The position numbers and the translations under genes were made by a program. The notes under the pieces were generated by a model. That model was not told where the DNA came from, searched no databases, and saw only the letters and a program-made list of their open reading frames with translations. From an uncultured Actinomycetota bacterium (GTDB taxonomy: Bacteria; Actinomycetota; Actinomycetes; Propionibacteriales; Nocardioidaceae): DNA of 64,000 bases. Of the stretch, positions 21,853 to 51,863 are shown one piece after another (the stretch's first letter is position 1; each line of letters starts with the position of its first letter). Location of the stretch: NCBI GenBank assembly GCA_963781545.1, contig CAWAGN010000016.1, forward strand, positions 30,666 to 94,665. Reading direction: 5' to 3'.

Positions 21853-23226
21853 ATGGAGTGGGTGCTGCTGGGCGTCTCGGTCGCCCTGATGCTCACGTGC
21901 GGGGTGTTCGGCGCGGCCGAGTACTCCCTCGTGACCGTCGACCGGGCGGCCGTCGAGCGCGCGGTGGCCGAGGGTGACCGCTCCGCCGAGGGCGTGCGGA
22001 TCGCGCTCAAGTCGCTCTCCACGCAGCTCTCCGGCGCCCAGGTCGGGGTCACCCTGACCAACCTGATCATCGGCTTCCTGGCCGAGCCGGCCATCGCGGA
22101 GCTGATCGACGGCCCGCTGGGCTCGACCGGCCTGCCCGGGCAGTGGGTGCCCGGCGTCGCGGTCGCGATCGGCCTGGTGCTGGCCACGATCGCCACCATG
22201 CTGTTCGGCGAGCTGGTGCCCAAGAAGATCGCCCTCGCCTCTCCCCTGTCCACCGCGCGCGCCACCCAACGCTTCCAGCGCACCTTCACCACCGTGATGA
22301 AGCTGCCGATCAAGGTGCTCAACGGCTCCGCCAACGCCGTCGTCAGGGCACTCGGCATCGAGCCGCAGGAGGAGCTCCGCTCGGCCCGCTCCTCCGACGA
22401 GCTGGCCTCCCTGGCGGGTCGATCGGCCTCGGAGGGCAAGCTCGACAGCGAGACCGCCCACCTGGTGCAGCGCTCGGTCGCGTTCGGGCCGCGCACCGCC
22501 GGGGAGATCATGACGCCGCGGGTGCAGATGGCCTGCGTCGACTCCTCCGACCCGGTCTCCGAGGTGATCGAGCTGTCCTCGGCCACCGGCTACTCGAAGT
22601 TCCCGGTGATCAAGGGCTCGACCGACCACATCGTCGGCTCGGTGCACGTCAAGCAGGCGGTCGCGGTCCCGCGTTCCGAGCGCGGCTCGACGCAGGTCCG
22701 TGAGGTGATGGTCGACGCGACCGTGGTGCCCGAGTCGCTCCGCCTCGACCCGCTGCTGCAGCTGCTGCGCGCCGAGGGCTTCCAGCTCGCGATCGTGTCC
22801 GACGAGTACGGCGGCACGGCCGGCGTGGTCACCCTCGAGGACGTGGTCGAGGAGATCGTGGGCGACATCGCCGACGAGCACGACCGCTACGGGTCCCGAC
22901 TGCGGCAACGTCCCGACGGCAGCTGGATCGTCTCCGGGCTGCTCCGGCCCGACGAGGTGCGCGACGCGACCGGTGTGGCCCTGCCGGAGCACGAGGACTA
23001 CGACACGGTGGCCGGACTGCTGGTGCGGGCGCTCGCCCGGATCCCCGAGCGGGGCGACCAGGTGGCCGTGCCGCTGCCGGTCGTGATCCCCGACGACGAC
23101 GACGAGGAGCCGGTGCAGGAGTTCGCGCAGCTCCGCGTGGTCCGCATGGACGGCCTCCGGGTCGATCGGCTGACGATCCGCAAGGTCGACGCCGACGCCA
23201 TCGCCCAGGCAGGGGACCCCGCATGA
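21853..23226 (+). CDS. CNNM/DUF21-CBS-CorC (hemolysin-family) Mg/Co transport protein 1
   Basis: FGAAEYSL, GAQVGVT, FGELVPK, CBS pair (YSKFPV; DEYGGTAGVVTLED..EEIVG) and CorC_HlyC tail; ATG lies 7 nt after CACAAT. Confidence 0.92.
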   Translation: MEWVLLGVSVALMLTCGVFGAAEYSLVTVDRAAVERAVAEGDRSAEGVRIALKSLSTQLSGAQVGVTLTNLIIGFLAEPAIAELIDGPLGSTGLPGQWVPGVAVAIGLVLATIATMLFGELVPKKIALASPLSTARATQRFQRTFTTVMKLPIKVLNGSANAVVRALGIEPQEELRSARSSDELASLAGRSASEGKLDSETAHLVQRSVAFGPRTAGEIMTPRVQMACVDSSDPVSEVIELSSATGYSKFPVIKGSTDHIVGSVHVKQAVAVPRSERGSTQVREVMVDATVVPESLRLDPLLQLLRAEGFQLAIVSDEYGGTAGVVTLEDVVEEIVGDIADEHDRYGSRLRQRPDGSWIVSGLLRPDEVRDATGVALPEHEDYDTVAGLLVRALARIPERGDQVAVPLPVVIPDDDDEEPVQEFAQLRVVRMDGLRVDRLTIRKVDADAIAQAGDPA

Positions 23227-23386
23227 ACACCCCACGAACCCACTCGCTGCGCTCGCGCTTCCGCGGAGACCCCGACATGGACACCCCACGAAACCACTCG
23301 CTGCGCTCGCACTTCCGCGGGGACCCCGCATGAACACCCCACGAAACCACTCGCTGCGCTCGCGCTTCCGCGGGGACCCCGCATGA
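23223..23386 (+). repeat. Three tandem MIRU-like units (54+53+53 bp) encoding coupled mini-ORFs of 36 aa (23223-23333) and 18 aa (23330-23386)
   Basis: Unit ATGAACACCCCACGAAACCACTCGCTGCGCTCGCGCTTCCGCGGGGACCCCGC. Peptides [36 protein letters not shown] and [18 protein letters not shown], all joined by ATGA overlaps. Confidence 0.92.
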
Positions 23387-24430
23387 GCACCCAGACCGCG
23401 ATCCTGGTCGGCGTCCTGCTGCTTGCGACCAACGCGTTCTTCGTCGGCGGCGAGTTCGCGCTCGTCTCGGCGCGTCGTACCAAGATCGAGCCGAAGGCCG
23501 CCGCCGGTTCCCGGATCGCGCGGACCACGCTGCGAGCGATGGACAACGTGTCCCAGGTGATGGCTGCCGTGCAGCTCGGGATCACGGTGGCGTCGCTGGC
23601 GCTCGGCGCGATCGCCGAACCGGCACTGGCGCACGTGGTCGAGCCTGCGTTCGACGCGGCCAACGTCCCCGAGGGGCTGCTGCACCCGGTGTCGTTCGCG
23701 CTCGCGCTGGCGATCGTGGTCTACCTGCACGTGGTGCTCGGCGAGATGGTGCCGAAGAACATCGCGCTGGCCGGTCCCGAGCGGGCCGCCCTGGTGCTGG
23801 GCCCGCCGATGATGGGGTTCGTGACGATCTTCAAGCCGATCGTGATCATGCTCAACGGCGCGGCCGACGGCGTCGTCCGACTCCTCCGGCTGGAGCCCGC
23901 CAGCGCCGTGGCCTCGACGTTCACCCGGGAGGAGGTCGAGGCCCTGGTCGACGAGTCCCGCCACGAAGGCCTGCTCGAGGAGGGCGAGTACCAGCGCCTC
24001 TCCGGAGCGCTCGGCTTCACCTCGCGACTGGTGTCCTCCGTGCTGCTGCCGATCAGTGCCCTGCAGACCGTGCGTCGCGGCGCTCGGGTCGGCGACGTGG
24101 AGAAGGTGTGCGCGACAACCGGCTACTCACGTTTCCCGGTGACCGCCGAGGACGACGAGCTGGTCGGCTACCTGCACATCAAGGACGTCCTCGAGACCGA
24201 TCCGCACGGGCGCGCACGCGTGGTCGAGGACAAGTGGATCCGCTCGTTCGCCAACGTGCGTCCCGACCGACACCCTGCAGACCGCGCTCGCGGTGCTGCA
24301 GGCCAAGGGCGCCCACATGGCGCGCGTGGTCGACGACGAGGGCACCCTGCTCGGCATCGTCACCCTCGAGGACGTGATCGAGGAGCTCGTCGGCGAGATC
24401 CGCGACGCCGCCCACGCCGACGGCCACTGA
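23383..24430 (+). CDS. CNNM/DUF21-CBS protein 2 with a +1 frameshift at about 24268
   Basis: [17 protein letters not shown] and GYSRFPV motifs. Removing one C in CCCGACCGAC restores [43 protein letters not shown]...GH* ending at 24430. Confidence 0.85.
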
Positions 24431-24433
24431 CCG

Positions 24434-24979
24434 CTACCGGGCGCGCAGCACGTGGAAGCCGTTGGCGACCGCGCGCACCCGCGGCAGCACCGTGCCCGGG
24501 TCGCTGTCCGCGGCCGCGAAGGTGCTCAACGTGAAGTTGCGTTCGCGTCCCTTGACCGTGATCAGCACGAACCGGAGCCGGACACCCTTCTTCGTGGTGG
24601 CCCTACCGAAGCTGGTGACCGCGCGCCGACCGTCGACCTTCTGCTTCTGGACCCGGACCAGGTCCACGGTGCGGTACGTCGAGCCGATCTTGGCCAGGAC
24701 CGCGGTGTTGGTGCCGGCCGGCGAGCCGCCCTTCGTCGGCGAGATCGTGACCAGCACCGTGTGGGCAGTGTCCTCGACCCGGGTGACCTTGCCGGTCCGC
24801 TTCGCCTTCATGCCCTCGGGGACCCGGATCGAGTAGCCGCCGGTCTTGTTGACCAGCAGCGAGGTGTCGAGCTCGACCGGCCGGTCGTCGTCCTTCTGCA
24901 GGGTCAGCCAGAGCAGCCAGCCGGCGACGAGCAGGGCGACGGCACCGACGATCGCGGGCCCGCTGACCCGTGCAGCCAT
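24434..24979 (-). CDS. Membrane-anchored extracytoplasmic hypothetical protein (PsbP/DUF1795-like pattern)
   Basis: N-terminal TM AIVGAVALLVAGWLLWL, then GGYSIRVPEG and a beta-rich basic domain. Confidence 0.6.
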   Translation of the reverse strand: MAARVSGPAIVGAVALLVAGWLLWLTLQKDDDRPVELDTSLLVNKTGGYSIRVPEGMKAKRTGKVTRVEDTAHTVLVTISPTKGGSPAGTNTAVLAKIGSTYRTVDLVRVQKQKVDGRRAVTSFGRATTKKGVRLRFVLITVKGRERNFTLSTFAAADSDPGTVLPRVRAVANGFHVLRAR

Positions 24980-25026
24980 GCCACCGCCTTCCCCATCCGC
25001 CGTCGCGCCCGGTCGGGACGCCAGGG

Positions 25027-26328
25027 TCAGACTGTCATGCGTCGGCGGTCCCACGCCGTCGCCACGGCACCCAGGCCGAACAGCGCCAGCCCGATCCCGA
25101 GCAGCCCGGACCACACGCCGCCGGTGTTCGGCAGCACGCCGTCGTCCACCTGGGTCACCGGACGCGGGTGCGCGGGACTCGTCGGGTTGTCCGGGCTGTT
25201 CGGGTTGCTCGGCGGCAGCACGACCGCCTCGCCGCCGTCGTCGTGCACCAGCGTCTCGGTGTGCGCGAAGTTGGCGAGCAGGTTCTGGTCGAAACCCATC
25301 GCGTCGAGTGCGGTCTGCGAGGTGCCGACCACGTTGTCACCGAAGTAGGTCTCGCCCTGGTTGCCGAACACGCAGAGCAGCGTCGGCGGGGTGGTCGGGT
25401 GGGTGCAGTCGACCTCGCCGCCCGGGACCGGCTCCGGCACCGCGATCGCGAACGCGTCGTTGGGCGCACCCGCGGCGTTGCCGGCCAGCGAGAAGTTCAG
25501 CACCTGCGAGGAGCGGGAGGCACTGCCGTCGGAGTCGGAGTGACCGTAGGAGGAGATCGCGTCGGCCGTCACGGTGCAGGCGTCGCCCTCACGCTGCACG
25601 CAGACGTTGGCGAGGCCGCTCTGGGCGGTGCCCGTCGTACGGCCGGACTGCTGGTTGCGGTGCGCACTCGACCTGCTGGCCGCGAGGTCGACCGTGGCGC
25701 CGCCGTCGCACGTCTCTCCGGTGTTGTCGATGCCGCCGAGGCAGAGGTTGGCGAGCCCGCTCTGGCTCCTGGAGTCGGACGTGGTGCCGTTGTCGTCGGC
25801 CCAGGCGTCGGAGTAGAGCAGGTCGAGGCACAGGGCGCCGTCGCTCTGCTCGCACACGGGGATCTCCGGGGCGCCGCCGTGGCTGGACGTCGGGCCGCCG
25901 TCGGACTTCGCATGGGCACCGACGATCTCCTGGCCACCGACCGCGAGGAGCGTGGAGTCGGCCTCGGTCGAGTCGTCGTCCTTGACCGTCGCCTTGTCGC
26001 TGCCGACACCGAGGACGTCCTGGCCACCGACCGTGACGTGGCCGACCTGCGAGGACGCGTGGTCGGGCGAGGTGGGGTTCGTCGTCTCGTGGTTGGGCGA
26101 GTCGTCGTCGGAGACCGGCGGGTCGGGCGCGTCCTTGGACGGCACGGTCGTGCCGGCGCTCTTCTTGGCGGTCGCGTCCTGCACCGACTTCTTGACCTGG
26201 TTGACCACGTTGCCTAGCGGGTTGCCGAGCGGGTCGGTGCCGTCGGCATGTGCCGGCCCCGCCCCCATCAGCATCAGTCCGGTCACCGAAACGGCCGCGA
26301 ATCCGGCCCTCATCGAGCGTGTGCGCAT
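25027..26328 (-). CDS. Secreted Cys-rich protein with LPXTG sortase cell-wall anchor
   Basis: Signal peptide ending AHA-D; eight Cys; internal repeat QSGLANLCL / QSGLANVCV; C-terminal LPNTG, TM and RRR tail. Confidence 0.82.
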   Translation of the reverse strand: MRTRSMRAGFAAVSVTGLMLMGAGPAHADGTDPLGNPLGNVVNQVKKSVQDATAKKSAGTTVPSKDAPDPPVSDDDSPNHETTNPTSPDHASSQVGHVTVGGQDVLGVGSDKATVKDDDSTEADSTLLAVGGQEIVGAHAKSDGGPTSSHGGAPEIPVCEQSDGALCLDLLYSDAWADDNGTTSDSRSQSGLANLCLGGIDNTGETCDGGATVDLAASRSSAHRNQQSGRTTGTAQSGLANVCVQREGDACTVTADAISSYGHSDSDGSASRSSQVLNFSLAGNAAGAPNDAFAIAVPEPVPGGEVDCTHPTTPPTLLCVFGNQGETYFGDNVVGTSQTALDAMGFDQNLLANFAHTETLVHDDGGEAVVLPPSNPNSPDNPTSPAHPRPVTQVDDGVLPNTGGVWSGLLGIGLALFGLGAVATAWDRRRMTV

Positions 26329-26402
26329 CGTCGACTCACCTTCCCTCTCGTGATTACCAACGAGTAAGGACGAAAAGGGCTACGCGCCCTGGGAGAGGTA
26401 CT

Positions 26403-26648
26403 TCAGGCCCCGTGCCCGCGGTTGCCGAGGATCGCGGCGGTCGGCGGGATCAGGGCGGCAACCGCGCTCATCGCGACGGCAGCGGGCACGGACCAGAAGC
26501 GCACGACGTTCCAGGCGAGGACGATCAGCACCACGCACACCCCCATCAGCCAGAAGTAGACCCGCTTGCGGGTGCGCTGGTCGGGCTCGGACCGCCGTTC
26601 GTCGGGAGGGCGGAGGTCCGGCGGGAGCTGGTGCCTGCGCTCACGCAC
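26403..26648 (-). CDS. DUF3099-like small membrane protein
   Basis: RKRVYFWLMGVCVVLIVLAW...AALIPPTAAILGN pattern; start overlaps the upstream gene end. Confidence 0.7.
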   Translation of the reverse strand: MRERRHQLPPDLRPPDERRSEPDQRTRKRVYFWLMGVCVVLIVLAWNVVRFWSVPAAVAMSAVAALIPPTAAILGNRGHGA

Positions 26649-27150
26649 CGCGGTCGATCAGCCCCCGGAGGTACTGCGCCTGCCCGATGTGGCGCGCCGC
26701 GTCGTCGAGCACACTGACCAGCCGCACCCCGAGCGTGACCGGCGGGTCCCAGCGGTCGTCGACGATACGCTCGAGACCGGTCACGGTGGCGAGGTACGAC
26801 GCCGCCTGCTCCTGGACCGCACGGTGGTACGCCGCGAGCGCACCGACGTCGGCGAACCGGACCTTGGCGACCTGGGCGGCGTCGTGGCCATAACCCGTGT
26901 CGCCGGCGGGCAGGTCGAGACCGAGCCGCTCGTCGTACCCACCGGCGGTGAGGACCTGCTCCTCCCCCGTCAGCCCCGCGAGGTGGTCGTCGATCACGCG
27001 GGTCAGGTGCCAGACCAGCCATCCCACGGAGTTGGCCTCCGGGCCGGGGCGCCAGGCAGCCCGGTCCGTGTCCAGGCCGTCGAGGACGTCGGGCACGGAC
27101 TGCGCGATCCGGTCGAAGCCGTCCAGCAGGAGGTCGTTGGCAGCACCCAT
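26641..27150 (-). CDS. DinB/DUF664 family (putative mycothiol transferase)
   Basis: ANSVGWLVWHLTRVIDDH and TLGVRLVSVLDDAARHIGQAQY His-triad motifs; ATG lies 6 nt after TAACGT. Confidence 0.85.
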   Translation of the reverse strand: MGAANDLLLDGFDRIAQSVPDVLDGLDTDRAAWRPGPEANSVGWLVWHLTRVIDDHLAGLTGEEQVLTAGGYDERLGLDLPAGDTGYGHDAAQVAKVRFADVGALAAYHRAVQEQAASYLATVTGLERIVDDRWDPPVTLGVRLVSVLDDAARHIGQAQYLRGLIDRGA

Positions 27151-27184
27151 GCCCGAACGTTAACGCGCCCCGCCGACGTGTCGG

Positions 27185-27433
27185 CTACTTGCTGGGCTCG
27201 GGGACGTTGACGTTGCAGTCCTTGACCTTCGGGTTCAGGCCCACGTAGTTCAGCGGCCCGGCGATGATCGTCACGATGATCGTGCCGGTCTTCGCGCAGT
27301 TGTTGTCGCCACCGCTGAAGTAGTCGCGCTGGAACGCTGCGAGCGCCCCGATGAGCAGCCAGATCACCACGAGCAGGCCGATCAGGCGGGAGATGCCGCC
27401 TCCGCGGCGGCGGCGCACTTCGACGTCGGACAT
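27185..27433 (-). CDS. Small conserved membrane hypothetical protein
   Basis: LIGLLVVIWLLIGALAAFQRDYF...C...AGPLNYVGLNPKV.C; AGGA RBS. Confidence 0.7.
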   Translation of the reverse strand: MSDVEVRRRRGGGISRLIGLLVVIWLLIGALAAFQRDYFSGGDNNCAKTGTIIVTIIAGPLNYVGLNPKVKDCNVNVPEPSK

Positions 27434-27537
27434 GACCTCACATCCTTTCCCTCCGTGATCCGGAGGTGATCGGGATCAGGATGCCGTACGACGAGCCGGC
27501 CGCCTAGGCCCGAAGGGGTAGCCGATCCGTCGCCGGA

Positions 27538-28176
27538 TCACCAGTCCCGGTCGCCGCGCGCGACCCTGCTGGATCGCTTGACGAAGCCGTGGTCCACGCC
27601 CCACAGGACAGCGTGACTGCGTGAGTCCACCCCCATCTTGCGGTAGGCGGAGCGGATGTAGGACTTCACGGTGTTGATGCTCAGGTACAACCGCTCGGCG
27701 ATCTCCTCGTTGCGCATGCCCTGGGTGATCAGCGCGACGATCTCGGCCTCCCTCTCGGTGAGACCGATCGTCTGGGCGGGCCAGACGCCGGGCGACTCGG
27801 CGTTCGGGGGGCCTCCGACCATCAAGATCTCGCCGTCCCGGATCCGCTCCAGTGCGGCGACCAGCTCTTCGGAGATCAGCGCCTTCGAGAGCACTGCGTC
27901 GGCGCCGTTCGCCCGGGCGGCGGTCATGAACTCGTTGGAGGTGTGCGCCGTGTAGAGCACCAGGTGCTGGGCCTTCACGTCCGGCCCGAACGCAAGGTCG
28001 GTCGCGAAGGTGTCGTACAGCGCGATGTCAGCCGGTGCGCGACTGGGCCCTGAGGCGGTGAGCTCGACGATCCGGACCCGACCCTCGAACGGTTCGAGCA
28101 TCCGGGCGAGGCCCCGGACCACCACCTCGTAGTCGTTGACGAGGGCCAGGGTGACGGGCGACGGGTTGAGGGACAT
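27538..28176 (-). CDS. Orphan LuxR/NarL-family response regulator
   Basis: Receiver (ALVNDY, ALYDTF, LYT, LSK) plus HTH LTEREAEIVALITQGMRNEEIAERLYLSINTVKSY. Confidence 0.88.
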   Translation of the reverse strand: MSLNPSPVTLALVNDYEVVVRGLARMLEPFEGRVRIVELTASGPSRAPADIALYDTFATDLAFGPDVKAQHLVLYTAHTSNEFMTAARANGADAVLSKALISEELVAALERIRDGEILMVGGPPNAESPGVWPAQTIGLTEREAEIVALITQGMRNEEIAERLYLSINTVKSYIRSAYRKMGVDSRSHAVLWGVDHGFVKRSSRVARGDRDW

Positions 28177-28504
28177 CAGCTGAACTCCTTGTCTCGTGTG
28201 ACACCCGAGATGCTGGGAACGCTGGGAGGGACCTGGCCCCCGGTGGACCCCTGCGGCCCGGGTTCTGGAGACCCTCATGTCCTTCGCGACAGGGCTGGTA
28301 CCCGGGTGGTGAGCCGACGAAACACGCGGGACGCCACCTTTTTCCCACCCGCCGACCAGGGTCGGATCCGGGCTCGCGGACCGCCGCGCGGACAGGTGCC
28401 GACCGGGCGCGCCCGCCTGATGTAAATGTCCGATTTCGACCAGACAGGGCGAGACTCATCTACTGTCGTCGGACAGGGTTCTGACTACTTCCACGGGGGC
28501 AATC

Positions 28505-30801
28505 GTGTGTCTCGGACGCGCGCTACGAACGGCCACCGTCGGGTCGGTGGTGCTGTTCGCCGTCCTGCTGGTCTCGCCCGTTTCGATGGGGCCGGACTGG
28601 GTGCGGGACGTGGTCGTCGGCAACGTGGTCTACCTGCTGCCGGTGGCGGTCCTGGTGCACGAAGCGCGGACCCGGGAGGAAGGCCGTGGCTGGAGGCTGG
28701 TGATCGCGGCCGGCATGCTCGCGTTCTTCGCCGGCAACGTCATCTACCTCTACCAGAGCGCCGTGGGCGAAGCAGCCTTCCCCTCGTGGGCCGATGTCGG
28801 CTACCTCGGAATCTACCCCTGCTTGTTGGCCGGTCTTCTGCTGGCCCTGCGCCAGCACCTTCGGGGCTCCGGTCTGGTCGTGCTTCTCGACGGGGTCATC
28901 GGCATGGCCGCTGCGGCGGCCGTCGTGGCTGCCGCCATCAATCCCCTGGTGGTCAGGCTCTGGGACGGCAGTGCGGCGGCGGTCGTGAGCGTGGCCTACC
29001 CGGTGTGCGACGGCCTTCTGGTCGTGGCCTCGCTGAGCGCCCTGGGGTTGGTCGGACACGGAAGGGGGCGCGTGTTCGGGTTGTGGGCGATGGGCCTCCT
29101 GGTGTTCGCGGTCGCCGACATGTTCTACGCCTACCGCGTCGCGTTCGACACCTACCAGGTGGGCACCTGGCTCGATGCGTTGTGGGCTGCCGGGTTCGCG
29201 CTGGTGGCCCTGGGCGGCAGCAGCGCGGAGAATGCCGGTGACCGAGCAGGGATCCCCGGCCTCGCATCGTTGGTCGTCCTCGGCACGGGTGGCCTGGCGG
29301 CCACCGTGGTCCTCGCCGTGGCGTCGATCTGGCACGCCTCGCTCTTCTCCGTCGTCCTGGCGCTGGGGGCGCTGCTGGGATGTGGCCTCCGTGCGGTGCT
29401 GTCGTTCGTGAGGCTGCGCGACCTGGCCACGCTCCGACAGCAGGCCATGAGCGACGACCTCACCGGCATTGCCAACCGGCGGTCGCTGTACCAGTGTCTC
29501 GACGCCTACTTCGCCCAGTCCGCCGACCCGCACGGAGCCAGAGAACGGCACGCCGCTTTGATCCTGATCGACCTGGACCGTTTCAAGGAGGTCAACGACT
29601 CTTTCGGACACGCCGTCGGGGACGAGCTGCTGCGTTGCGTGGTGGAGCGGTTCGAGGCCAGCCTGGGCAGGCAGCGGACCACCCATCTGCTCGCCAGGCT
29701 GGGCGGGGACGAGTTCGCGCTCGTGCTGCCGGACTGCTCCGAGGAGCGCATCGCCTGCGGTGTGGCGCAGGCGTTGCAGGAGAGCCTGACCAGGCCGATG
29801 GACCTGTGCGGGATCACCCTGCACGTGAACGCGAGCATGGGCGTCGCCCTCGCTCCCTCGCACGGCACCAGCCGCAGCGACCTGCTCTTCGCCGCCGACT
29901 CCGCCATGTACGCAGCCAAGACGGTCGGTGACTCGGTCCAGGTGTACTCACCCGCCACCGGCGGTGACCAGCGTCGACGACTACAGCTGGCCGAAGACCT
30001 GTACGCCGCCCTGGAGCGCGACGAGCTCAACGTCGTCTACCAGCCGATCACCACGGTCGACCAGGACGTGGTCGGCGTCGAGGCGCTCGTGCGTTGGGAC
30101 CACCCCGTCTGGGGTCGGCTGGCCCCCATGGACTTCCTGGGAGTCGCCGAGCACTACCGGCTGACGCCGGCCGTGGCGAAGCGGGTGCTGGCGGTCGCGC
30201 TGCGCGACCTCGCAAGCTGGCGGGCGAGGGGCGCCGAACTGAGCGTGTCCGTCAACGTCTCTCCCTCGGACGTGCGCGACGAGGGACTCATCGACGCGGT
30301 GGCGACGGCTCTGATGGAGACCGGACTGCCGGGGCACGCGCTGACCATCGAGGTCACCGAGTCGGCGATCATGCAGGACCCGCAGCGTGCCCGTGCGGTC
30401 TTCGCCGGGCTGCGCGAGCTGGGCGTCCGGCTCGCCATCGACGACTACGGCACCGGCTACAGCAGCCTGGAGTACCTCTACCGGCTGCCCATCGACGAGC
30501 TCAAGCTCGACCGCACCTTCATCCAGGACCTGGTGACCGACAGGCGCGCGGCCGCCATCGTGGGATCCACGATCGAGCTGACCCATGCCCTCGGGCTTCG
30601 CATGGTGGCCGAGGGTGTCGAGGACGAGCCCACCCTTGCCGTGCTTCGCGATCTCGGAACCGACCTGGTGCAGGGTTGGCACGTCGGGCGCCCAGTTTCC
30701 CCGCCGACCTCGAGCGGCGTCTCGGGCTCCGCGACGAGCACCGCGGCAGCGAAGACGCGCTCGCTGTCGACGCGGGACTCGGCTCCGGCCCGGTTTCCTG
30801 A
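28505..30801 (+). CDS. Membrane-bound GGDEF-EAL diguanylate cyclase/phosphodiesterase; frameshift near 30700
   Basis: About 9-10 TM N-terminus, DDLTGIANRR, DLDRFKEVNDSFGHAVGDELL, RLGGDEF, VEALVRW, IDDYGTGYSS and AEGVE. After QGWHVGRPV the natural tail (PADLERRL...GPVS*) is in another frame ending at 30801; the uncorrected ORF runs to 30880. Confidence 0.88.
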
Positions 30802-30862
30802 CCCGCGCGATTCTTGCCTGGTGGGACGGACGAGGGCTTCACCGTCGACCGTCTCGAGAGCG

Positions 30863-31818: not shown

Positions 31819-31928
31819 TCTTGGCCCGATCTCATCGAAAGGTGTCATTCGTGCCACTCACGGTACCTCGGTCGGCTGGGCGAAGATGGACGCGATCCCG
31901 TTCGCCAGCCTCCCGAAGGAGAACAGCC

Positions 31929-41703: not shown

Positions 41704-42021
41704 ATGAAGAAGCTTCCGCTGTTGATCGCCGCCGGGATCGGCTACGTGCTGGGCACGAAGGCCGGTCGCGAGCGCTACGACCAGATCCGCGACGCCGCGC
41801 TGAAGGTGCGCAACGACCCGCGCGTGCAGGAGAAGGCCCAGCAGGCCTCCGACCTGGCCCGCGAGCAGGCGCCCGTCATCAAGGACAAGGTGGCCGAGAG
41901 TGCGCACGCCGCGGCCGACAAGGTGAAGAGCGGCGCCGGCTCCAGCGACCCGGGTGACCAGCTCAACCCCGAGAGCACCCACTTCCAGAAGGACCCCTAC
42001 CCGCAGGGTGACCTCCCGTAG
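41704..42021 (+). CDS. Small membrane-anchored hypothetical protein (YtxH-like)
   Basis: MKKLPLLIAAGIGYVLGTKAGRERYDQI pattern; GGAGG upstream. Confidence 0.75.
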   Translation: MKKLPLLIAAGIGYVLGTKAGRERYDQIRDAALKVRNDPRVQEKAQQASDLAREQAPVIKDKVAESAHAAADKVKSGAGSSDPGDQLNPESTHFQKDPYPQGDLP

Positions 42022-42039
42022 CCCGGCACGGGTGACCGG

Positions 42040-43689: not shown

Positions 43690-43766
43690 GGGGACCTCCG
43701 GGGGCAGGATCCGGCGAACCTAGGAGCCCCGCTGGTCGACGGTCAAGGTGGTCTCGTACCAGCAGC

Positions 43767-44693
43767 TCAGTAGTCGCCGGTCATCTGGTTCTCCAGCGGC
43801 TGACCGGCGGCGAAGCGCTCGAGCTGCTCGCGCACCAGTCGGTGGGCACGCGGCCACATGGCGCTGCTGGCGCCGCCGACGTGCGGGGAGACCAGCAGCC
43901 GGGGTGCCTTCCACAGGGGGTGCCCGGCCGGCAGCGGCTCCGGCTCCACGACGTCGATCGCGGCAGCGATCCGCTCCGAGGTGAGCTCCGCGAGGAGCGC
44001 GTCGGTGTCGACGACTGCCCCTCGGGCGACGTTGACCAGCAGGGCGTCGTCCTTCATCCGGGCCAGGAAGTCGGCGTCCACCAGGCCACGCGTCTGGTCG
44101 GTCAGGGGCACCACGAGCACCACCACGTCCGCGTCCGGCACCAGTCCGGGCAGGTCCTCGAAGGCGTGCACGCCGTCGCGGGCCCGCCGAGCCACCTTGA
44201 CGACGTCGACCTCGAACGGCAGCAGCCGGCGCTCGATCGCCTCCCCGATGGCGCCGTGGCCGACGATCAGCACGCGCTTGTCGGCGAGTGCCGGCAACGG
44301 ACGCTGGTGCCACTCCTCGCGGTCCTGCTCCCGGACGAACTGCGGGATGCCGCGCAGCGAGGCCAGGGTCAGGGCCAGCACCAGCTCGGCGGTGGACGTG
44401 TCATGGATCCCGCGGCCGTTGCAGAGCAGCACGCCGTCCGGGACGTGCGGCGCGATGTGCTCCACACCGGCGGTCAGGGTCTGGACGACCCGCAGCCGTG
44501 GCATGGCGGTCATCAGCTCGGCGGCTCCGCGGGCGAAGTTGTACGGCGGGACGTAGACCTCGACCTCGTCGATGGATGCGGGTCGCTGCCAGTCGTCCTC
44601 GGTCGGGTCGACGCACTCGTAGCGCAGACCACCGGGGGCCGGGTCGAGGCGATCGGCGTCGAAGGGCAGCCAGACGAGCGGGTCCGAGGTCAT
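43767..44693 (-). CDS. D-2-hydroxyacid dehydrogenase
   Basis: IVGHGAIG, VNVARG, DVVEPEPL and SPHVGG motifs. Confidence 0.92.
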   Translation of the reverse strand: MTSDPLVWLPFDADRLDPAPGGLRYECVDPTEDDWQRPASIDEVEVYVPPYNFARGAAELMTAMPRLRVVQTLTAGVEHIAPHVPDGVLLCNGRGIHDTSTAELVLALTLASLRGIPQFVREQDREEWHQRPLPALADKRVLIVGHGAIGEAIERRLLPFEVDVVKVARRARDGVHAFEDLPGLVPDADVVVLVVPLTDQTRGLVDADFLARMKDDALLVNVARGAVVDTDALLAELTSERIAAAIDVVEPEPLPAGHPLWKAPRLLVSPHVGGASSAMWPRAHRLVREQLERFAAGQPLENQMTGDY

Positions 44694-44745
44694 GTGGGGA
44701 GCCTAGGAGACGGGGCCGGCCGTTGTGGAGTGGGCGACGCTCCCC

Positions 44746-45993
44746 TCAGCGCGTCAGCCGTGCGTGCCAGCCGACGGCGGAGACGTCCGTGAGCGAGGCG
44801 ATCTGGTCCAGCAGCACCCGAGTCCGCGCGGCGTCGTCGGTCGCGGACTCGTGGTCCACCCGGAACGCCGGGTCGAGCAGCCCGGGCCCGCCCGAGCCGA
44901 GGGCCTCGAAGAGCTCGTGCACCAGCAGCCGCTGCCGCTCCATCACCTCGAAGTGGCCCGGCGCCTCCATCACGAACCGCGCCGCCACTCCCTTGAGCAC
45001 CCCGATCTCCACGGCGGTCTCCTGCGGGACGACCAGGTCGGCGTCATGGCGAACCAGCGGCCCGGTCCCGTGGACCGCCCGGGTCGCGTGCTGGACGCTG
45101 CCGCAGAAGATCCCGATCACGTCGGAGGTCAGGTTCTTCAGGGCCGCCGAGGCGGCACGGCTCCCGTCGTACGGCGCCGTCGGCCAGGCCTCGATCGCGG
45201 AGAGCCGGTGGTAGGCCGCATCCAGCTCGTCGTCGTCGCAGTCGGGGAGGTACCAGCTGCGGACCGTCGTCCAGACGTCGTGCCGCAGACCGGTGTCGGC
45301 CAGGCCGGTGAGGTCGACCAGTCCGGCGACGACGCCGTCCTCGATGTCGTGCACGGAGTACGCGACATCGTCGGCCAGGTCCATCACCTGCGCCTCGACG
45401 CACAGCCGGGGGCCGGTGACTCCCTCCCGCAGCCAGCCGAACACCGGCTCCTCGTCGGCGTAGACCCCGAACTTCGTGGGGTCAGGACCGGCGCCCCGCT
45501 GCCAGGGGTACTTGGTGCAGGCGTCGAGGGTGGCCCGGGTCAGGTTCAGCCCGATCGAGCGACCGTGGGCGTCGGTGGACTTGGCCTCCAGCCGGGTCAG
45601 TATCCGCAGCGTCTGGGCGTTGCCCTCGAACCCACCGCAGTCCGCCGCGAGCGCGTCCAGGACTCGCTCACCGTTGTGGCCGAACGGCGGGTGCCCGAGG
45701 TCGTGGGCAAGGGCGGCGGTCTCCGCGAGATCGGGGTGGCAGCCCAGCACGTGCGCGACGTCGCGGGCCACCTGCGCCACCTCCAGGCTGTGCGTGAGCC
45801 GGTTGCGGACGAAGTCGTCGGTGGCCGGTCCGACCACCTGGGTCTTGGCGGCGAGCCGGCGCAGCGCGGCCGAGTGCACGACGCGGGCGCGGTCACGCTC
45901 GAAGGGCGTGCGCTCCGGGGCCGGCACCCGCTTGGCCGGCTCGTCGACCCACCGTGCCCGGGAGGCGGCGTCGTAGAGGTCGTCCCAGGTCAC
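44746..45993 (-). CDS. dgt: Deoxyguanosinetriphosphate triphosphohydrolase (HD family)
   Basis: RLAAKTQV, RNRLTHSLEVAQ, AHDLGHPPFGHNGE and DDVAYSVHD motifs; GTG at 45993 lies 7 nt after TACGCT. Confidence 0.93.
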   Translation of the reverse strand: MTWDDLYDAASRARWVDEPAKRVPAPERTPFERDRARVVHSAALRRLAAKTQVVGPATDDFVRNRLTHSLEVAQVARDVAHVLGCHPDLAETAALAHDLGHPPFGHNGERVLDALAADCGGFEGNAQTLRILTRLEAKSTDAHGRSIGLNLTRATLDACTKYPWQRGAGPDPTKFGVYADEEPVFGWLREGVTGPRLCVEAQVMDLADDVAYSVHDIEDGVVAGLVDLTGLADTGLRHDVWTTVRSWYLPDCDDDELDAAYHRLSAIEAWPTAPYDGSRAASAALKNLTSDVIGIFCGSVQHATRAVHGTGPLVRHDADLVVPQETAVEIGVLKGVAARFVMEAPGHFEVMERQRLLVHELFEALGSGGPGLLDPAFRVDHESATDDAARTRVLLDQIASLTDVSAVGWHARLTR

Positions 45994-46097
45994 CGGGCCG
46001 AGCGTAGTGGGCACCGGCTACAGCCAGCCGTCGCCGTCCGCCGTCAGCCCGCGAGAACGCGCCGAGCGGCGGGATCTCGGCGTGGACCTGCGACCGG

Positions 46098-46859
46098 TCA
46101 GCGGACGGGGTGGCCGGAGGCGGCGAGGGCGGACTTCACGTCGGCGATCCCGAGCGTGCCGAAGTGGAAGACGGTGGCGGCGAGGACGGCGTCGGCGCCG
46201 GCGTCGACGGCGGGCGGGAAGTGCTCGACGGCCCCCGCTCCCCCGCTGGCGATCACCGGGATCGACACCTCGGCGCGGACCAGCCGGATCAGCTCGAGGT
46301 CGAAGCCGTCGGTGGTGCCGTCGGCGTCCATCGCGTTGAGCAGGATCTCGCCGGCACCCAGGTCGGTCGCCCGACGGGCCCACTCCACGGCGTCGAGCCC
46401 GGCGCTCCTGCGGCCTCCGTGGGTGGTCACCTCGAAGCCCGACTCGGTGTCACCGCCGCGACGGGCGTCGAGCGAGAGGACCAGCACCTGGTTGCCGAAC
46501 CGGTCGGCGATCTCCGCGACCAGCCCGGGTCGGTGGATGGCCGCCGTGTTGACCGCGATCTTGTCGGCTCCGGCGCGCAGCAGGGTGTCGACGTCATCCA
46601 CCGAGGAGATCCCACCGCCGACGGTCAGCGGGATGAACACCTGCTCCGCGGTCCGCGAGACGATCTCGAGCGTGGTCGCGCGGCCCTCGTGCGAGGCCGA
46701 GATGTCGAGGAAGGTCAGCTCGTCGGCGCCTTGGGCGTCGTAGAGCCGCGCGAGCTCGACCGGGTCGCCGGCATCGCGGAGCTCACGGAAGTTCACGCCC
46801 TTGACCACGCGTCCGGCGTCCACGTCCAGGCACGGGATGACGCGTACGGCGAGCGTCAT
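46098..46859 (-). CDS. hisF: Imidazole glycerol phosphate synthase cyclase subunit
   Basis: [27 protein letters not shown] and PVIASGGAG motifs. Confidence 0.97.
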
Positions 46860-46912
46860 GCGGGGTCCCCGCGGAAGCGCGAGCGAAGCGAGCGGTTCTC
46901 TGGGGCGATCAC
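46856..46912 (-). repeat. MIRU-like unit encoding an 18-aa coupled mini-ORF between priA and hisF
   Basis: GTGATCGCCCCAGAGAACCGCTCGCTTCGCTCGCGCTTCCGCGGGGACCCCGCATGA = (M)[21 protein letters not shown] and ATGA overlaps. Confidence 0.9.
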
Positions 46913-47643
46913 GGCCGGTCCGGCCAGGTGAGGGCGAGCGCGTCCTCGAGCGTGAACCGGCCCTCGTAGAGCGCGGTGCCGATGATCGCGCCCTCGACGC
47001 CTTCGTCGACGAGGTCCGTCAGCGCGGACAGGTCGGCGAGCTCGGTGATCCCGCCGGACGCCACCACCGGCGCCTCGGTGGCGGCGCAGACGTCGCGCAG
47101 CAGCTGGAGGTTGGGCCCCTGGAGCATGCCGTCCTTGTTGACGTCGGTGACCACGTAACGGGCGCACCCTTCGCTGTCGAGCCGGGCCAGCACCTCGTAG
47201 AGGTCACCGCCGTCACGGGTCCAGCCGCGCGCGGCGAGAGTGCGACCGCGGACGTCGAGGCCGATCGCGATCCGGTCACCGTGCTCGGCGATCGCGGCCG
47301 CGCACCACTCCGGCTGCTCGAGCGCCGCGGTGCCGATGTTGACCCGGCGGCAGCCCGTGGCCAGCGCCGCGCCGAGGGACTCGTCGTCGCGGATGCCCCC
47401 GCTCATCTCCACCCGGATGTCGAGGGCGCCGACGATGCGGGCCTGCAGGTCACGGTTGTCACCACGACCGAACGCCGCGTCCAGGTCGACCAGGTGCAGC
47501 CACTCCGCACCGGACTCCTGCCAGCGCAGCGCCGCCTCGACGGGGTCGCCGAAGTGCTTCTCCGAGCCCGCGACCCCCTGGACCAGCTGGACGGCCCGGC
47601 CGTCGGCGATGTCGACGGCGGGCAGTAGTTCGAGGTGGGACAT
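46909..47643 (-). CDS. priA: Phosphoribosyl isomerase A (HisA/TrpF bifunctional)
   Basis: [30 protein letters not shown] and SGGIRD motifs; actinobacterial PriA type. Confidence 0.93.
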
Positions 47644-47652
47644 GGGGTCCTC

Positions 47653-47976
47653 TCAGGCGATGAACACGACGAGCAGCGGGAGCAGCAGCAGAGTGACGGC
47701 GAAGGCGGCCAGCCGCGAGGGCCAGTCGTCGCGGAAGATCCAGACCAGCACCTGCACCAGCACCAGGGCCGAGACCAGCAGTCGCAGCCGGGTACGCCGA
47801 CGTTCGGCCAGGATGCCGGTCTGCCGGCCACCCGTGCGGCGGGGCAACCACCGGCCCAGCGCCTGCCTGCGCGCGCGGCTGCGCTCGGCGCGTTCCTGGG
47901 CCGCGGCGCGTGCTGCCTGCCTCACGGCGGCCTCGCGCTCCCGCTCGGCGCGACGGGAGGCGCGTTCCTTGCTCAT
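47653..47976 (-). CDS. Small basic membrane hypothetical protein inside the his operon
   Basis: MSKERASRRAERE coiled coil plus two C-terminal TMs. Confidence 0.7.
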   Translation of the reverse strand: MSKERASRRAEREREAAVRQAARAAAQERAERSRARRQALGRWLPRRTGGRQTGILAERRRTRLRLLVSALVLVQVLVWIFRDDWPSRLAAFAVTLLLLPLLVVFIA

Positions 47977-48029
47977 TCGGGGTCCACGGCCGAGCGCGAG
48001 CGCAGCGAGTGGTCGGTGGGGGTGTTCAC
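47973..48029 (-). repeat. MIRU-like unit encoding an 18-aa coupled mini-ORF after hisH
   Basis: GTGAACACCCCCACCGACCACTCGCTGCGCTCGCGCTCGGCCGTGGACCCCGAATGA = (M)[17 protein letters not shown]. Confidence 0.88.
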
Positions 48030-48670
48030 AGCGCCTCCACCCAGTTGCGGAGGAGCCGGGCACCCGCGTCGCCGGACTTCTCGGGGTGGAACTGGGTGGC
48101 GCAGAGCGGCCCGTTCTCGACCGCGGCCACGAACCTGTCGGTCCCGTTGCGTGGCCCGTGCTCGGTCCAGTGCACCAGCGGGGTCCGGGTCCTGCCGGTC
48201 GTGACCAGGTCCCAGCTCCGCACGCCGTAGGAGTGCACGAAGTAGAAGCGCTCCTGCTCGATGCCGGCGAAGAGCGTGCTCCCCGGCGCGACGTCGACGG
48301 TGTTCCACCCCATGTGAGGTACGACGGGCGCGCGCAACCGTTCCACCGTGCCCGGCCACTCGCCGCACCCCTCGGTGCTCACGCCGTGCTCGACCCCGTG
48401 GTCGAAGAGCACCTGCATCCCCACGCAGATCCCGAGCACCGGGCGTCCGCCCGCGAGCCGGCGGCCGATGATCTCCGCTCCGTGCACGGCCCGGAGCCCG
48501 TCCATGCAGGCCCGGTAGGCGCCGACACCGGGGACCACGAGTCCGTCACAGTCCTGGGCAGCCGCCCGGTCGGCGGTCAGCGTGACCTCGGCGCCGGCAC
48601 GTTCGAGGGCCCTGACGGCGGAGCGGACGTTGCCCGATCCGTAGTCCAGGACGGTGACCTGAGCGTTCAT
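48026..48670 (-). CDS. hisH: Imidazole glycerol phosphate synthase glutamine amidotransferase subunit
   Basis: [26 protein letters not shown] and TQFHPEKS motifs. Confidence 0.96.
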
Positions 48671-48735
48671 GCCTCTTCGGGGTCCCTGCGGGGGGATCGC
48701 GGAGCACCAGCGGAGCGATCCCGTGGGGTGATCAG
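48667..48735 (-). repeat. Divergent MIRU-like unit (65-bp period), 22-aa mini-ORF between hisB and hisH
   Basis: CTGATCACCCCACGGGATCGCTCCGCTGGTGCTCCGCGATCCCCCCGCAGGGACCCCGAAGAGGCATGA = (L/M)[25 protein letters not shown] and ATGA overlaps. Confidence 0.75.
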
Positions 48736-49331
48736 AGCGTGCCCTTGGTCGAGGGCACACCGGTCTCGCGCGGGTCGATGGCGACCGCGTCGCGCAGCGC
48801 CCGGGCGACCGCCTTGAACTGCGCCTCGACCAGGTGGTGCGGGTCACGCGACGACAGCACCCGCACGTGCAGTGCGATCTGGGCGTGGTGCGCGATCGTC
48901 TCGAAGACGTGCCGGGTCAGCGAGCCCAGGTAGGCGTCGCCGATCAGCACGAACTCCTGCCCCTCGGGCTCGCCGGTGTGCACGCAGTAGGGCCTGCCGG
49001 AGACGTCGACGGCGCACTGCACCAGCGCCTCGTCGAGCGGGACCAGGGAGTCCCCGAACCGGCGGATGCCGGCCTTGTCGCCGAGCGCCTCGCGCAGCGC
49101 CTCGCCGAGCACGATCGCGGTGTCCTCGACGGTGTGGTGCGCGTCGATGTGGGTGTCGCCCTCGGCCTGGACGGTCAGGTCGATCAGCGCGTGCCGACCG
49201 AAGGCGGTCAGCATGTGGTCGTAGAACCCCACGCCGGTGGAGACGTCGGTGCGCCCGGCGCCGTCGAGGTCGACCTCGACCAGCACCTTGGACTCCTTGG
49301 TCTGGCGCTCGATCCGTGCGGTGCGGCTCAT
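48732..49331 (-). CDS. hisB: Imidazoleglycerol-phosphate dehydratase
   Basis: [19 protein letters not shown] and [12 protein letters not shown] motifs. Confidence 0.97.
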
Positions 49332-50452
49332 GTCGCGACCCTTCCGTTCTCCTGTGCGTCGGTCACATTGTCCAGTGCCTGCCCGAATGCCGCCATCTCG
49401 TCGGCCGTGCCGACGGACACGCGCAGCCAGCCGTCGGGTCCGGTCTCCCGGATCAGCACCCCCCGGTCGAGCAGCGAGCGCCACACCGCGTGCCGGTCGG
49501 CGAACCGGCCGAACAGCACGAAGTTGGCGTCGGACTCGGCCACGTCGTAACCCCGCTCGCGCAGCCAGACGACCGTGCGGTCGCGCTCCAGGCGCAAGGT
49601 CTCGACGTTCGCGAGGAGCGCGTCGGCGTGCCGGAGCGCGGCGCTGGCGGTGGCCTGGGTGACCGCGGAGAGGTGGTAGGGCAGGCGGACGACCCGGAGC
49701 GCGTCGCAGATCGCCGGCGACGCGGCGAGGTAGCCGAGCCGCGCGCCGGCGAGCGCGAACGCCTTGCTCATGGTGCGCGTGACCACCAGCTGCGGGTGCT
49801 CGGCCAGCAGCTCCAGCGCGCTCGGGGTGCCGGTGCGCCGGAACTCCGCGTAGGCCTCGTCGATCACCACCACCCCGGTGTCACCGACCAGGTCGCAGAG
49901 AGCACCGACCACGTCGTGCGGCAGTGCGGTGCCGGTCGGGTTGTTCGGCGACGGCAGCAGCACCACGCTCGGCCGGTGCTCGGCGACCAGCTCACGGGCG
50001 TGCTCGAGGTCGAAGCCGAAGTCCTCCCGGCGGCGGCCGGCGACCCAGGCGGTCATCGCGTCCCGGGCGTACTCCGGGTACATCGAGTACGTCGGGGCGA
50101 ACGAGACCGCGGTGCGCCCCGGACCCCCGAAGGCCTGCAGGATCTGGAGCATCACCTCGTTGGACCCGTTGGCGGCCCAGATCTGCTCCGGCGAGAGTGC
50201 CACCCCGGACTCCGTGGCCAGGTAGCCCGCGAGCCCGGCGCGGAGCTCGGTGAACTCCCGGTCCGGGTAGCGGTTCAGGGAGGCGGCAGCGGTCATCACC
50301 GACCGGGCGATGTCCGCGACGCACTCCGCGCCCGGCGGGTAGGGGTTCTCGTTGACGTTGAGCTGCACCGGCACGTCGAGCTGCGGCGCGCCGTACGGCT
50401 CGATGCCGACCAGCTCGTTACGCAGCGGAGGGGTCCACTGCACCGAGGTCAC
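49328..50452 (-). CDS. hisC: Histidinol-phosphate aminotransferase
   Basis: [29 protein letters not shown] and [15 protein letters not shown] motifs; GTGA overlap with hisD. Confidence 0.96.
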
Positions 50453-51768
50453 CTGTCCTCGAGGCGCACCCGGACGGCGGCGCCGTGCCCGGGGAGGTCC
50501 TCGGCCTCGGCGAGCGCCACGACGTGGTGGGCCACCTGCTCGAGGGCGGCCCGGTCGTACTCGACCACGTGCACGGCCCGCAGGAACGAGCGGACCGACA
50601 GGCCCGAGGAGTGGCACGCGCAGCCACCGGTGGGCAGCACGTGGTTGGAGCCCGCGCAGTAGTCGCCGAGCGAGACCGGGGCGTAGGCGCCCACGAACAC
50701 GGCACCGCCGTTGCGCACCCGCTCCGCGTGACCACGAGCGTCGGCGGTGTGGATCTCGAGGTGCTCGGCGGCGTAGGCGTTGACCACGTCGAGACCCTGG
50801 TCCATGTCGTCGACCAGCACGATGCCGCTCTGGCTGCCACCGAGAGCGGTGCGGATCCGGTCGGTGTGCCGCGTGGCATGGACCTGCTTCTCCAGCTCGG
50901 CCTCCACGTCGTCGGCCAGCCGGAGCGAGTCGGTGACCAGCACCGAGGCGGCCATCGGGTCGTGCTCTGCCTGGCTGACCAGGTCGGCCGCCACGTACGC
51001 CGCGTCTGCGGTGTCGTCGGCGAGGATCGCGATCTCGGTCGGACCTGCCTCGGAGTCGATGCCGACGACCCCCTTGAGCAGCCGCTTCGCCGCGACCGTG
51101 TGGATCGCGCCGGGCCCGGTGACCAGGTCGACGGGGCGGCACTCCCCCGCGCCGTAGGCGAGCATCGCGATCGCCTGCGCACCGCCGACGGCGTACACCT
51201 CGTCGACGCCGAGCAGCTCGCAGGCGGCCAGGATCGTCGGGTGCGGCAGCCCGCTGCCCCACTCGCCGAACGCCGCCTTCTGCGGGGAGCTGGTCAGCGC
51301 GATCGAGCCGACGCCGGCGACCTGCGCAGGCACCACGTTCATCAGCACGCTGGAGACCAGCGGTGCGATCCCTCCGGGCACGTAGAGGCCCACCCGGTCG
51401 ACCGGGATCATCCGCTTGGTCACGCGGGCGCCCGGGCCCAGGTCGGTGGCGCCGTCGGCCTCGAGCTCGGCGGCGCAGGTCAGCCGCAACCGCCGGACCG
51501 ACTCCTCGAGCCCGGCCCGGATGACCGGGTCGAGTACGTCGAGGGCGGCGGTGAGCGCGCCGGCCGGCACCCGGATCTCGTCCTGGACGACGCCGTCGAA
51601 GCGTTCGGAGTACTCGCGGACCGCCTCGACCCCCCGGGTGCGCACGGCGTCGCAGATCGGGCGCACCACCTCCAGCGCGGCCTCCACGTCGACATCGGCG
51701 CGCGGCACCAGGGTGCGGTAGTCCGGGGAGTCGGCAGCGGCTCCACGCAGGTCGATCCGGCGAATCAT
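50449..51768 (-). CDS. hisD: Histidinol dehydrogenase
   Basis: [36 protein letters not shown] and [13 protein letters not shown] motifs; ATG lies 6 nt after TAGACT. Confidence 0.97.
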
Positions 51769-51803
51769 GGGGCCAGTCTAGGGAGCGGACTACGGTTGCC
51801 CCC

Positions 51804-51863
51804 GTGCCGACCACCCCACGAGAGCGCTCGCTGCGCTGCCGCTCCCGCGGGGACCTCGGATGA
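51804..51863 (+). repeat. MIRU-like unit forming an apparently leaderless 19-aa uORF coupled to the LON-domain gene
   Basis: GTGCCGACCACCCCACGAGAGCGCTCGCTGCGCTGCCGCTCCCGCGGGGACCTCGGATGA = (M)PTTPRERSLRCRSRGDLG*. GTG lies 7 nt after TACGGT; TGA overlaps ATG at 51860. Confidence 0.78.

Follow-up and report, generated by a model that had tools for sequence, protein, structure and literature searches.

Why does one short, hairpin-forming sequence lie at several separate gene junctions of a bacterial genome, meeting a stop codon at one edge and a start codon at the other? We address this question for a 64,000-nt stretch of DNA from an uncultured member of the Nocardioidaceae. This stretch, which we call the window, corresponds to C16:30666-94665 of a draft genome (3.6 Mb, 71% G+C, 90% complete), and it contains seven units of the sequence at five loci. 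We consider it likely that a small, non-autonomous mobile repeat gave rise to these units, one that homes to start codons and preserves the coupling of the genes it separates. The repeat is found in Nocardioides and several other actinobacterial families, and is apparently so far undescribed.

The arrangement calls to mind MIRUs, the interspersed repetitive units of mycobacteria. Two papers (PMC3184786; PMC12548453, both citing Supply et al. 1997) describe these as elements of 40-100 nt that are present in ~40-50 copies within operons and contain small open reading frames (ORFs) overlapping both neighbours. The same papers (PMC3184786; PMC12548453) describe empty and filled sites with a tetranucleotide repeat, and MIRUs are there thought to insert at start codons, with the ORF coupled at -4.

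Seven units at five loci

The seven units have start-to-start distances of 54, 53, 53, 53, 53, 65 and 56 nt. At all five loci, the 3′ end is an ATGA whose ATG starts a long ORF with high G+C content at third codon positions (GC3), namely CNNM-2, hisF, orf107, hisH and a LON-domain gene. On the 5′ side, four loci have an NTGA that lies on the stop codon of the upstream gene (CNNM-1 ATGA, hisA GTGA, hisH GTGA, hisB CTGA). The original prediction, made from the letters of the window, had described seven units at five loci with these spacings, a stop overlapping the next ATG everywhere and a start overlapping the upstream stop at four loci, and all of this holds at the positions given below. A covariance model (CM) built from genome-wide copies, a check proposed with that prediction, recovers exactly these seven units in the window at E<0.01 (85-36 bits; next match E=0.038) and 47 copies in the genome. 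The family was also recovered independently by a repeat finder (entries D1, D12, I1-I9).

Three units on the forward strand form a tandem array between CNNM-1 and CNNM-2. Unit 1 (23223-23276, 54 nt, CM score 69.7 bits) has its ATG on the CNNM-1 TGA (23224-23226), and unit 2 occupies 23277-23329 (53 nt). Since unit 1 has no stop codon, the two are read as one 36-codon ORF that ends at the TGA at 23331-23333, on the ATG of unit 3; conceptual translation yields a single product of 36 aa, as expected from the earlier proposal that the 54-bp unit fuses in frame with the next. Unit 3 (23330-23386, 53 nt plus ATGA, 85.2 bits) contains an 18-codon ORF whose stop at 23384-23386 lies on the CNNM-2 ATG (23383).

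Units 4 to 6 are on the reverse strand, at three junctions of a histidine operon. Unit 4 (46856-46912) separates hisA (priA) from hisF; its GTGA (46909-46912) is the hisA stop, its ATGA (46856-46859) is the hisF start, and 53 nt lie from one to the other. The same distance is found in unit 5 (47973-48029), with its GTGA on the hisH stop and its ATGA on the orf107 start. Unit 6 (48667-48735, 65 nt, 36.1 bits) is a variant with an inner stem and loop unlike those of the other units; its CTGA coincides with the hisB stop and its ATGA with the hisH start. Unit 7 (51804-51863, forward strand, distance 56 nt) is a leader copy with no gene upstream. The GTG at 51804 opens a 19-codon ORF whose stop lies on the ATG (51860) of a LON-substrate-binding-domain gene.

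Copies across the genome

We searched the 3.6-Mb genome by iterated nhmmer and by the CM, oriented every copy and recorded the adjoining long ORFs with high GC3. There are 39-44 copies by nhmmer. The core, CACCCCACGAAACCgCTCGCTGCGCTCgCGCTTCCGCGGGGACCCCG, measures 45-47 nt, and the usual period is 53 nt. In 43 of 44 copies, the unit adjoins a gene start in the sense orientation, and 40 copies from other families are oriented in the same way. Approximately 24 copies are perfect relays, in which an NTGA overlaps the stop of the preceding gene and an ATGA the start of the following one. Another eight have their own ATG or GTG, with the upstream stop 7-13 nt away or no gene upstream. The predicted dispersed family at coupled junctions is thus real, with ~44 copies in gene orientation.

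Some of the remaining copies depart from this layout in several ways. Three are N-terminal extensions of the downstream ORF (C5:213335, C6:54821, C9:98813), and one, at C3:682475, is a C-terminal tail of the upstream ORF. In the case of C9:98813-98872, the unit is in frame with the gene and the product reads ..GIRRLLALAVVGGVLLAGCG, a lipoprotein-type signal peptide with a lipobox. A loss of 2 nt seems to have fused the unit to this signal peptide, and the protein would carry a 20-residue element-derived extension ahead of it. C5:210450 is a truncated orphan copy. Three deletion derivatives, C1:189769(-), C3:534318(-) and C2:9112(-), have 29, 23 and 44 nt between their two NTGAs, and retain the CACCCCACG head and a length of 3n+2.

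In addition to the triple array at 23223-23386, there is a tandem pair at C5:720567, and other genomes have arrays of three or four. At C3:640574-640805, two units on opposite strands, ~130 nt apart, each precede one gene of a divergent pair. The forward-strand copy of this pair is followed by CCCGAGATGAT three times.

Some copies are nested. In C3:670313-670420 and in two loci of an f21 genome, L173 1979-2084 (-) and L177 1976-2082 (-), a complete inner unit of a GAGATCG...CGATCC subtype lies within the 3′ arm of an outer unit. The insertion point, which is not a TGA, has the identical relative position in these three independent cases from two families. Two of the composites, of 110 and 107 nt, are 3n+2 in length; the third, of 106 nt, is not.

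Filled and empty sites

Related genomes provide the empty counterparts of four of the junctions. Between hisA and hisF, nothing but an ATGA or GTGA is found in more than 60 relatives, where the window reads ggccGTGA[53 nt ...ccccgcaTGA]cgctcgcc. Between hisH and orf107, relatives read ctGTGAgcaaggaacg (GTGAgcaagga) and the window reads ctGTGA[53 nt ...ccccgaaTGA]gcaaggaacg. The CNNM-1-CNNM-2 junction is empty, with (A/G)TGAgcacccag, in 12 relatives, one of which has a 95% identical protein. The LON-domain gene has an empty site, ..ctacgttgggtcccGTGACGGTCCGG, with the start GTGACG, in its closest relative (L179, 92%). In relatives, a TAnnnT box precedes the GTG of this gene by ~7 nt, a geometry that suggests a leaderless-type gene start; in the window, that GTG opens the mini-ORF.

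Each of the four filled junctions contains a unit of 53-56 nt (three units in the case of CNNM) and a second TGA. The filled sites have TGA on both sides, and where the downstream start was a GTG it is now an ATG, whose A is supplied by the element. These four comparisons show real insertions into (A/G)TGA. The repeat flanking the copies is mostly TGA or ATGA, and extends to 6-15 nt in a few copies; a target duplication of fixed length was accordingly rejected.

The flanks of occupied sites resemble those of 511 bare NTGA junctions. Comparison of the two sets revealed no target motif beyond NTGA and the usual G-rich Shine-Dalgarno region, and A is somewhat enriched over G before the TGA.

Reading-frame phase

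To measure phase, we took the TGAs closest to the core on its two sides, whatever their frame, and counted the distance between them. The set comprised 65 copies from this genome and 17 others, where the copies from other genomes came from the top of score lists, favouring complete ATGA flanks. By this unbiased distance, 59 of the 65 copies are 3n+2, in agreement with the phase proposed in the original prediction. The distances are 53 (29 copies), 56 (22), 59 (7) and 65 (1). In these copies the 5′ spacer is 1-8 nt, the core 44-50 nt and the 3′ spacer 0-12 nt long, and 15 of 19 distinct combinations of spacers and core still sum to 3n+2. When the 3′ spacers of 40 non-founder copies were shuffled, 14.8 copies were expected in phase and 34 were observed; none of 20,000 shuffles reached 34, a figure that overstates the independence of copies that are kin to one another. 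Because the copies are related, the number of distinct geometries is the more reliable measure.

The core is read in all three frames among copies from this and other families, giving ..TPRxxSLRSRxRGDPx, ..HPTxPLAALxxPRGPR or ..PHDAARCARAAAGAPR. Since all three frames are used, the peptide is not the object of selection. Instead, selection acts on the open frame that leads from the old start to a stop on the new start. Where the phase has been lost, copies persist solely as N- or C-terminal extensions in frame with neighbouring genes.

A strand-asymmetric hairpin

An alignment of 38 copies supports a 14-pair helix, with 46 compensatory cells versus 17 in shuffled alignments, and this helix beats all slid registers. 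The original prediction that both frame and hairpin are kept despite sequence divergence is supported. Three fixed pairs are A.C in 30, 25 and 15 of the 38 copies, while G.U is rare in the sense strand. Two of the A.C mismatches are kept in other families.

The strand that is antisense relative to the genes folds better in 75 of 76 copies, with a mean of -23.9 versus -13.9 kcal/mol as RNA, and the advantage has the same direction under DNA parameters. The antisense fold is stronger because an A.C in the sense strand is a G.U in the other. In the sense orientation, single units fold no better than shuffled sequence. The original prediction also had the hairpin bury the Shine-Dalgarno-like GGGGA of the downstream gene. 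The hairpin itself stands, but because it is mainly a property of the antisense strand, such burial is at best weak. It is more probable that the hairpin serves the element itself, in recognition or mobilisation, than that it serves the mRNA. The conserved A.C mismatches could keep the mRNA hairpin weak enough for translation.

Distribution and variants

Within the genus, 22 of 24 species have the element, with copy numbers ranging over the sampled species from 0 to 60, and its presence is polymorphic. In its own family, it occurs in 58 of 201 genomes and 16 of 60 genera sampled; in the class, it occurs in 75 of 401 genomes and 37 of 175 genera, including families f21, f24, f38, f48, f59 and others. 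At least six further actinobacterial families carry the element, with scores as high as those of the window copies. No copies were found in four other families of the window's own order. The scans together took in about 640 genomes. A genus-restricted family was considered and is overturned by the copies in other genera and families.

The 40 copies from other families have the same NTGA...ATGA layout, and nearly all differences between the consensuses of the families are compensatory changes within the inner stem. One copy of this genome is identical at 46 of 47 positions to a copy in an f21 genome. The patchy spread with a single consensus suggests horizontal transfer, strong constraint by the mobilising machinery, or both.

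Some variants are longer, at 72-83 nt, with ends TGAnCACCCC ... GGGGACCCCG, a CGCTTCGCTCC loop and a longer stem. They occupy the hisB-hisH junction, that of unit 6, in three Nocardioides species (L028 2377-2459, L044 2446-2528, L058 2461-2543), and variants of this kind also occur in family f56 genomes (the further variant loci are L125, L127, L129 and L132).

A different repeat is found in a 10-Mb f52 genome (L130, L136, L139, L140). Its hairpin, CCTGCGGAATCGGCTTCGCCGATTCCGCAGG, is perfect and leads into the same GGGACCCCG tail, and the repeat may represent a further related family.

A scan of 22000-53000 against Rfam at E<=1 returned two tRNAs only. In the literature that was searched, no publication deals with such repeats in Nocardioides or its relatives at genus level, and a search with an 11-mer of the unit gave plasmid backbones only.

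A probable start-codon-homing, coupling-preserving repeat

The element inserts into an NTGA stop/start overlap or, for a first gene, into its (A/G)TGA start, and it always has the orientation of the gene. The old NTG start, with its old Shine-Dalgarno sequence or leaderless 5′ end, now opens an ORF of 17-22 codons that crosses the element. A new ATGA arises from the element's last A and the second TGA, so that the mini-ORF stops on the start of the displaced gene. We propose that ribosomes translate the mini-ORF and re-initiate at this ATGA, and that the insertion is tolerated because coupling across the junction is kept. The mini-ORF is probably kept open so that ribosomes are passed on, as has been described for MIRUs. 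The mobilising enzyme would act in trans, and the element itself would be essentially selfish or neutral.

Several points weigh against this proposal, in addition to the kinship of the copies noted above. Translation of the mini-ORFs and re-initiation are read from geometry, and the mini-ORF of unit 6 would need CTG, a poor start codon. By our own crude gene calls (a GC1>GC2 rule), which make such counts rough, non-coding DNA contains more than 1000 ATGA and almost no copies of the element. Because these neutral sites are almost free of copies, start-codon targeting is not explained by a TGA target plus selection. The consensus is nearly identical across families, a uniformity that plain junk would not easily maintain. 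Finally, because we found neither a transposase nor an autonomous partner, mobility is deduced from the filled and empty sites and the patchy copy number. In this 90%-complete genome, no pair of unit ends 0.5-4 kb apart bounds a longer element.

The near-identical consensus, the copy-free neutral ATGA and the three nested copies at a fixed position fit a specific enzyme rather than chance plus selection. An extension of this idea, which we regard as unlikely, is that a single trans-acting machinery made this family, the mycobacterial MIRUs and other actinobacterial MIRU-like repeats. Such a machinery would home to start codons or stop/start overlaps, and would recognise the folded antisense strand and the loop word (CGCT)N(CGCT).

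Alternative explanations

The family might be a true sequence relative of the mycobacterial MIRUs by common descent. We recovered MIRUs with a 22-mer of MIRU sequence. Its exact, repeated matches are confined to the genomes of a single genus (f51/g114). From three of these Mycobacterium-type genomes, we retrieved 20 MIRU loci (L153-L172), mostly with 53 nt between NTGAs, including a four-unit array with TTGA junctions (L169). In gene sense, these MIRUs read NTGA-cc-CGCGCCGGCGACGATGCAGAGCGCAGCGATGAGGAGGAGCGGCGC-n-ATGA over 53 nt, with an outer stem of 6-7 bp and a strong internal GAGGAGG, and they lack a long hairpin that favours one strand.

The two families have the same period (53 nt), are bounded by NTGA on either side and form an outer G+C stem. 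They also share (CGCT)N(CGCT) as a central word, in which the middle letter varies in both families (GAGCG[C/A/G]AGCGA in MIRUs). However, this 11-mer, (AGCG)N(AGCG), is the only string common to both, it lies on opposite strands relative to the genes, and nothing else aligns. MIRUs have the strong GAGGAGG and no long covarying hairpin, and the model of the present family (R1) has no match in the MIRU-rich g114 genomes. Because the sole shared 11-mer is on the opposite strand and R1 finds no matches, we regard the family as the same kind of element as MIRUs and not as a detectable member of their sequence family. We consider common descent unlikely. The original prediction, that the logic is MIRU-like and the sequence is not that of the mycobacterial MIRU, agrees with these 20 fetched loci.

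It is also conceivable that the repeat benefits its host as a regulatory module, setting the ratio of neighbouring proteins or providing a site of mRNA processing or stability. Tuning of operon stoichiometry or of mRNA processing had been raised in the original prediction. Five families have almost the same consensus and differ by compensatory changes alone, a single operon has three of its junctions filled, and related variants occur at hisB-hisH in four species, all of which would suit such a role. Nevertheless, the same junctions are bare in nearly all close relatives, copy number ranges from 0 to 60 within a genus, the host genes are functionally unrelated, and structure in the sense strand is at the level of shuffled sequence. 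We find this explanation quite improbable.

A function for the antisense strand seems very unlikely to us, although the strand asymmetry invites it. The hairpin could stop or pause antisense transcripts that enter operons, with the mini-ORF as the price of a location within operons. The greater stability of the antisense hairpin, by ~10 kcal/mol in 75 of 76 copies, is in line with this insulator function, as are the A.C pairs that become G.U on the antisense strand and the UGUUCAU that follows the antisense stem. By contrast, there is no real U-tract, and an insulator does not account for the exact position at start codons or for the 3n+2 phase.

An element of the REP/RAYT kind (repetitive extragenic palindromes with their associated tyrosine transposase), or one derived from IS200/IS605, would depend on a Y1 (HUH) transposase that moves it in single-stranded form. 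The imperfect hairpin, specific to one strand and containing wobble pairs, the short conserved flanks (TCA/TGA) and the dozens of copies resemble such elements, and the original prediction had suggested a RAYT/IS200 partner. However, the Y1 transposase domain PF01797 has no match in 27 genomes (this one and 26 that are copy-rich or copy-free), while control genomes were positive. Moreover, orientation tracks genes and not replication: 23 of 38 copies versus 54% of all genes show no replication-strand bias (p=0.5). We dropped mobilisation as single-stranded DNA by a Y1/RAYT enzyme, which on these data is extremely improbable.

The original prediction had also raised the production of Arg-rich micropeptides. 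The idea that the mini-ORFs are genuine genes for a functional Arg-rich small protein has next to nothing to commend it: most copies in this genome do encode xxTPRxxSLRSRxRGDPx, the commonest product here, but this pattern is simply conserved DNA in its commonest phase, and many copies use the other two frames (HPTxPLAALxxPRGPR, PHDAARCARAAAGAPR).

Implications

A mobile repeat that homes to start codons has consequences for annotation. There are dozens of unannotated ORFs of 17-36 codons, the true starts of the displaced genes are shifted and gene callers will mis-start such genes, and some genes bear N- or C-terminal tails that stem from the element. By what means start codons are found by MIRU-type elements, and what mobilises these, has been a question since 1997, and the present family offers more material than the MIRUs do: hundreds of copies, many culturable, non-pathogenic genera, clean filled and empty sites, a covarying strand-specific hairpin and nested insertions. 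The three frames, the many spacer geometries and the copy that captured a leaderless start also provide a natural series for the study of termination-reinitiation.

Host genes and nearby observations

CNNM-1 (21547-23226, forward strand), the upstream host of the array, encodes CNNM, CBS and CorC_HlyC domains, and CNNM-2 (23383-24534, forward strand) is the host gene downstream of the triple array. The last codons of CNNM-1 (23203-23226), GGGGACCCCGCATGA, are identical to the 3′ end of a unit; the closest relative has GGTGACGTATGA. The end of CNNM-1 was either converted by the array, or is a look-alike that helped the array to grow in tandem.

The operon segment hisB-hisH-orf107-hisA-hisF (46098-49484, reverse strand) has units at three of its junctions. 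Relatives of the window hisA are those of Nocardioides and Marmoricola. The junction of orf107 and hisA, at 47644-47652 on the reverse strand, reads TGAgaggaccccATG. Its 9-nt spacer resembles the GGACCCC tail of a unit, and may be a remnant of a lost copy. The gene orf107 (47653-47976, reverse strand), between hisH and hisA, encodes 107 aa with an Arg/Glu/Ala-rich start, MSKERASRRAEREREAA.., and a hydrophobic end, and has no match in Pfam. Many relatives have an ORF with the same start, GTGAGCAAGGA.., after hisH.

The LON_substr_bdg-domain gene (51860-52528, forward strand) is the host gene 3′ of unit 7. Outside the family, we noticed a 58-nt inverted repeat at 19825-19943, which is unrelated to the unit. 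Its arms are 74% complementary and 3 nt apart, and it is itself composed of direct repeats (..AGATGCGCCTCCGGCGC..).

Comparison with known systems

Integron attC sites are similar by analogy only. They too are imperfect palindromes whose functional fold is on one strand and that are co-oriented with genes. By contrast, the present copies have no integron or integrase context and are scattered in core operons, and we claim no membership.

Classical miniature inverted-repeat transposable elements (MITEs; Correia, RUP and ERIC-type elements) share with the present family a small size, non-autonomy, foldable terminal inverted repeats and a short target duplication, and are sometimes co-transcribed or fused to ORFs. 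Unlike these, the present family targets a start codon or stop/start overlap and conserves phase; a search of this 90%-complete genome for a partner insertion sequence with matching ends found none.

REP/RAYT and IS200/IS605 elements resemble the family as short imperfect palindromes in dozens of copies whose hairpin is read on one strand. REP elements need the Y1 transposase that is absent here. They are also extragenic and without frame phase, and their orientation follows replication, which that of the present family does not.

The closest likeness in layout is to the MIRUs. The two have in common a size of 40-100 nt with a main class of 53 nt, ~40-50 copies per genome, tandem arrays and a location within operons in gene orientation. 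They also share a small ORF that meets the upstream stop at one end and, at -4 (ATGA), the downstream start at the other, and filled and empty sites with a short direct repeat. Neither is known to have a transposase. The families differ in that the present one forms a covarying hairpin of 13-14 bp that is stable in antisense, whereas MIRUs fold weakly on both strands. MIRUs have a strong GAGGAGG before the ATG, where the present family has only GGGGA, and the present family spans several actinobacterial families with one consensus. What the family adds to the MIRU kind is a strand-asymmetric hairpin, the use of three frames and a spread across families.

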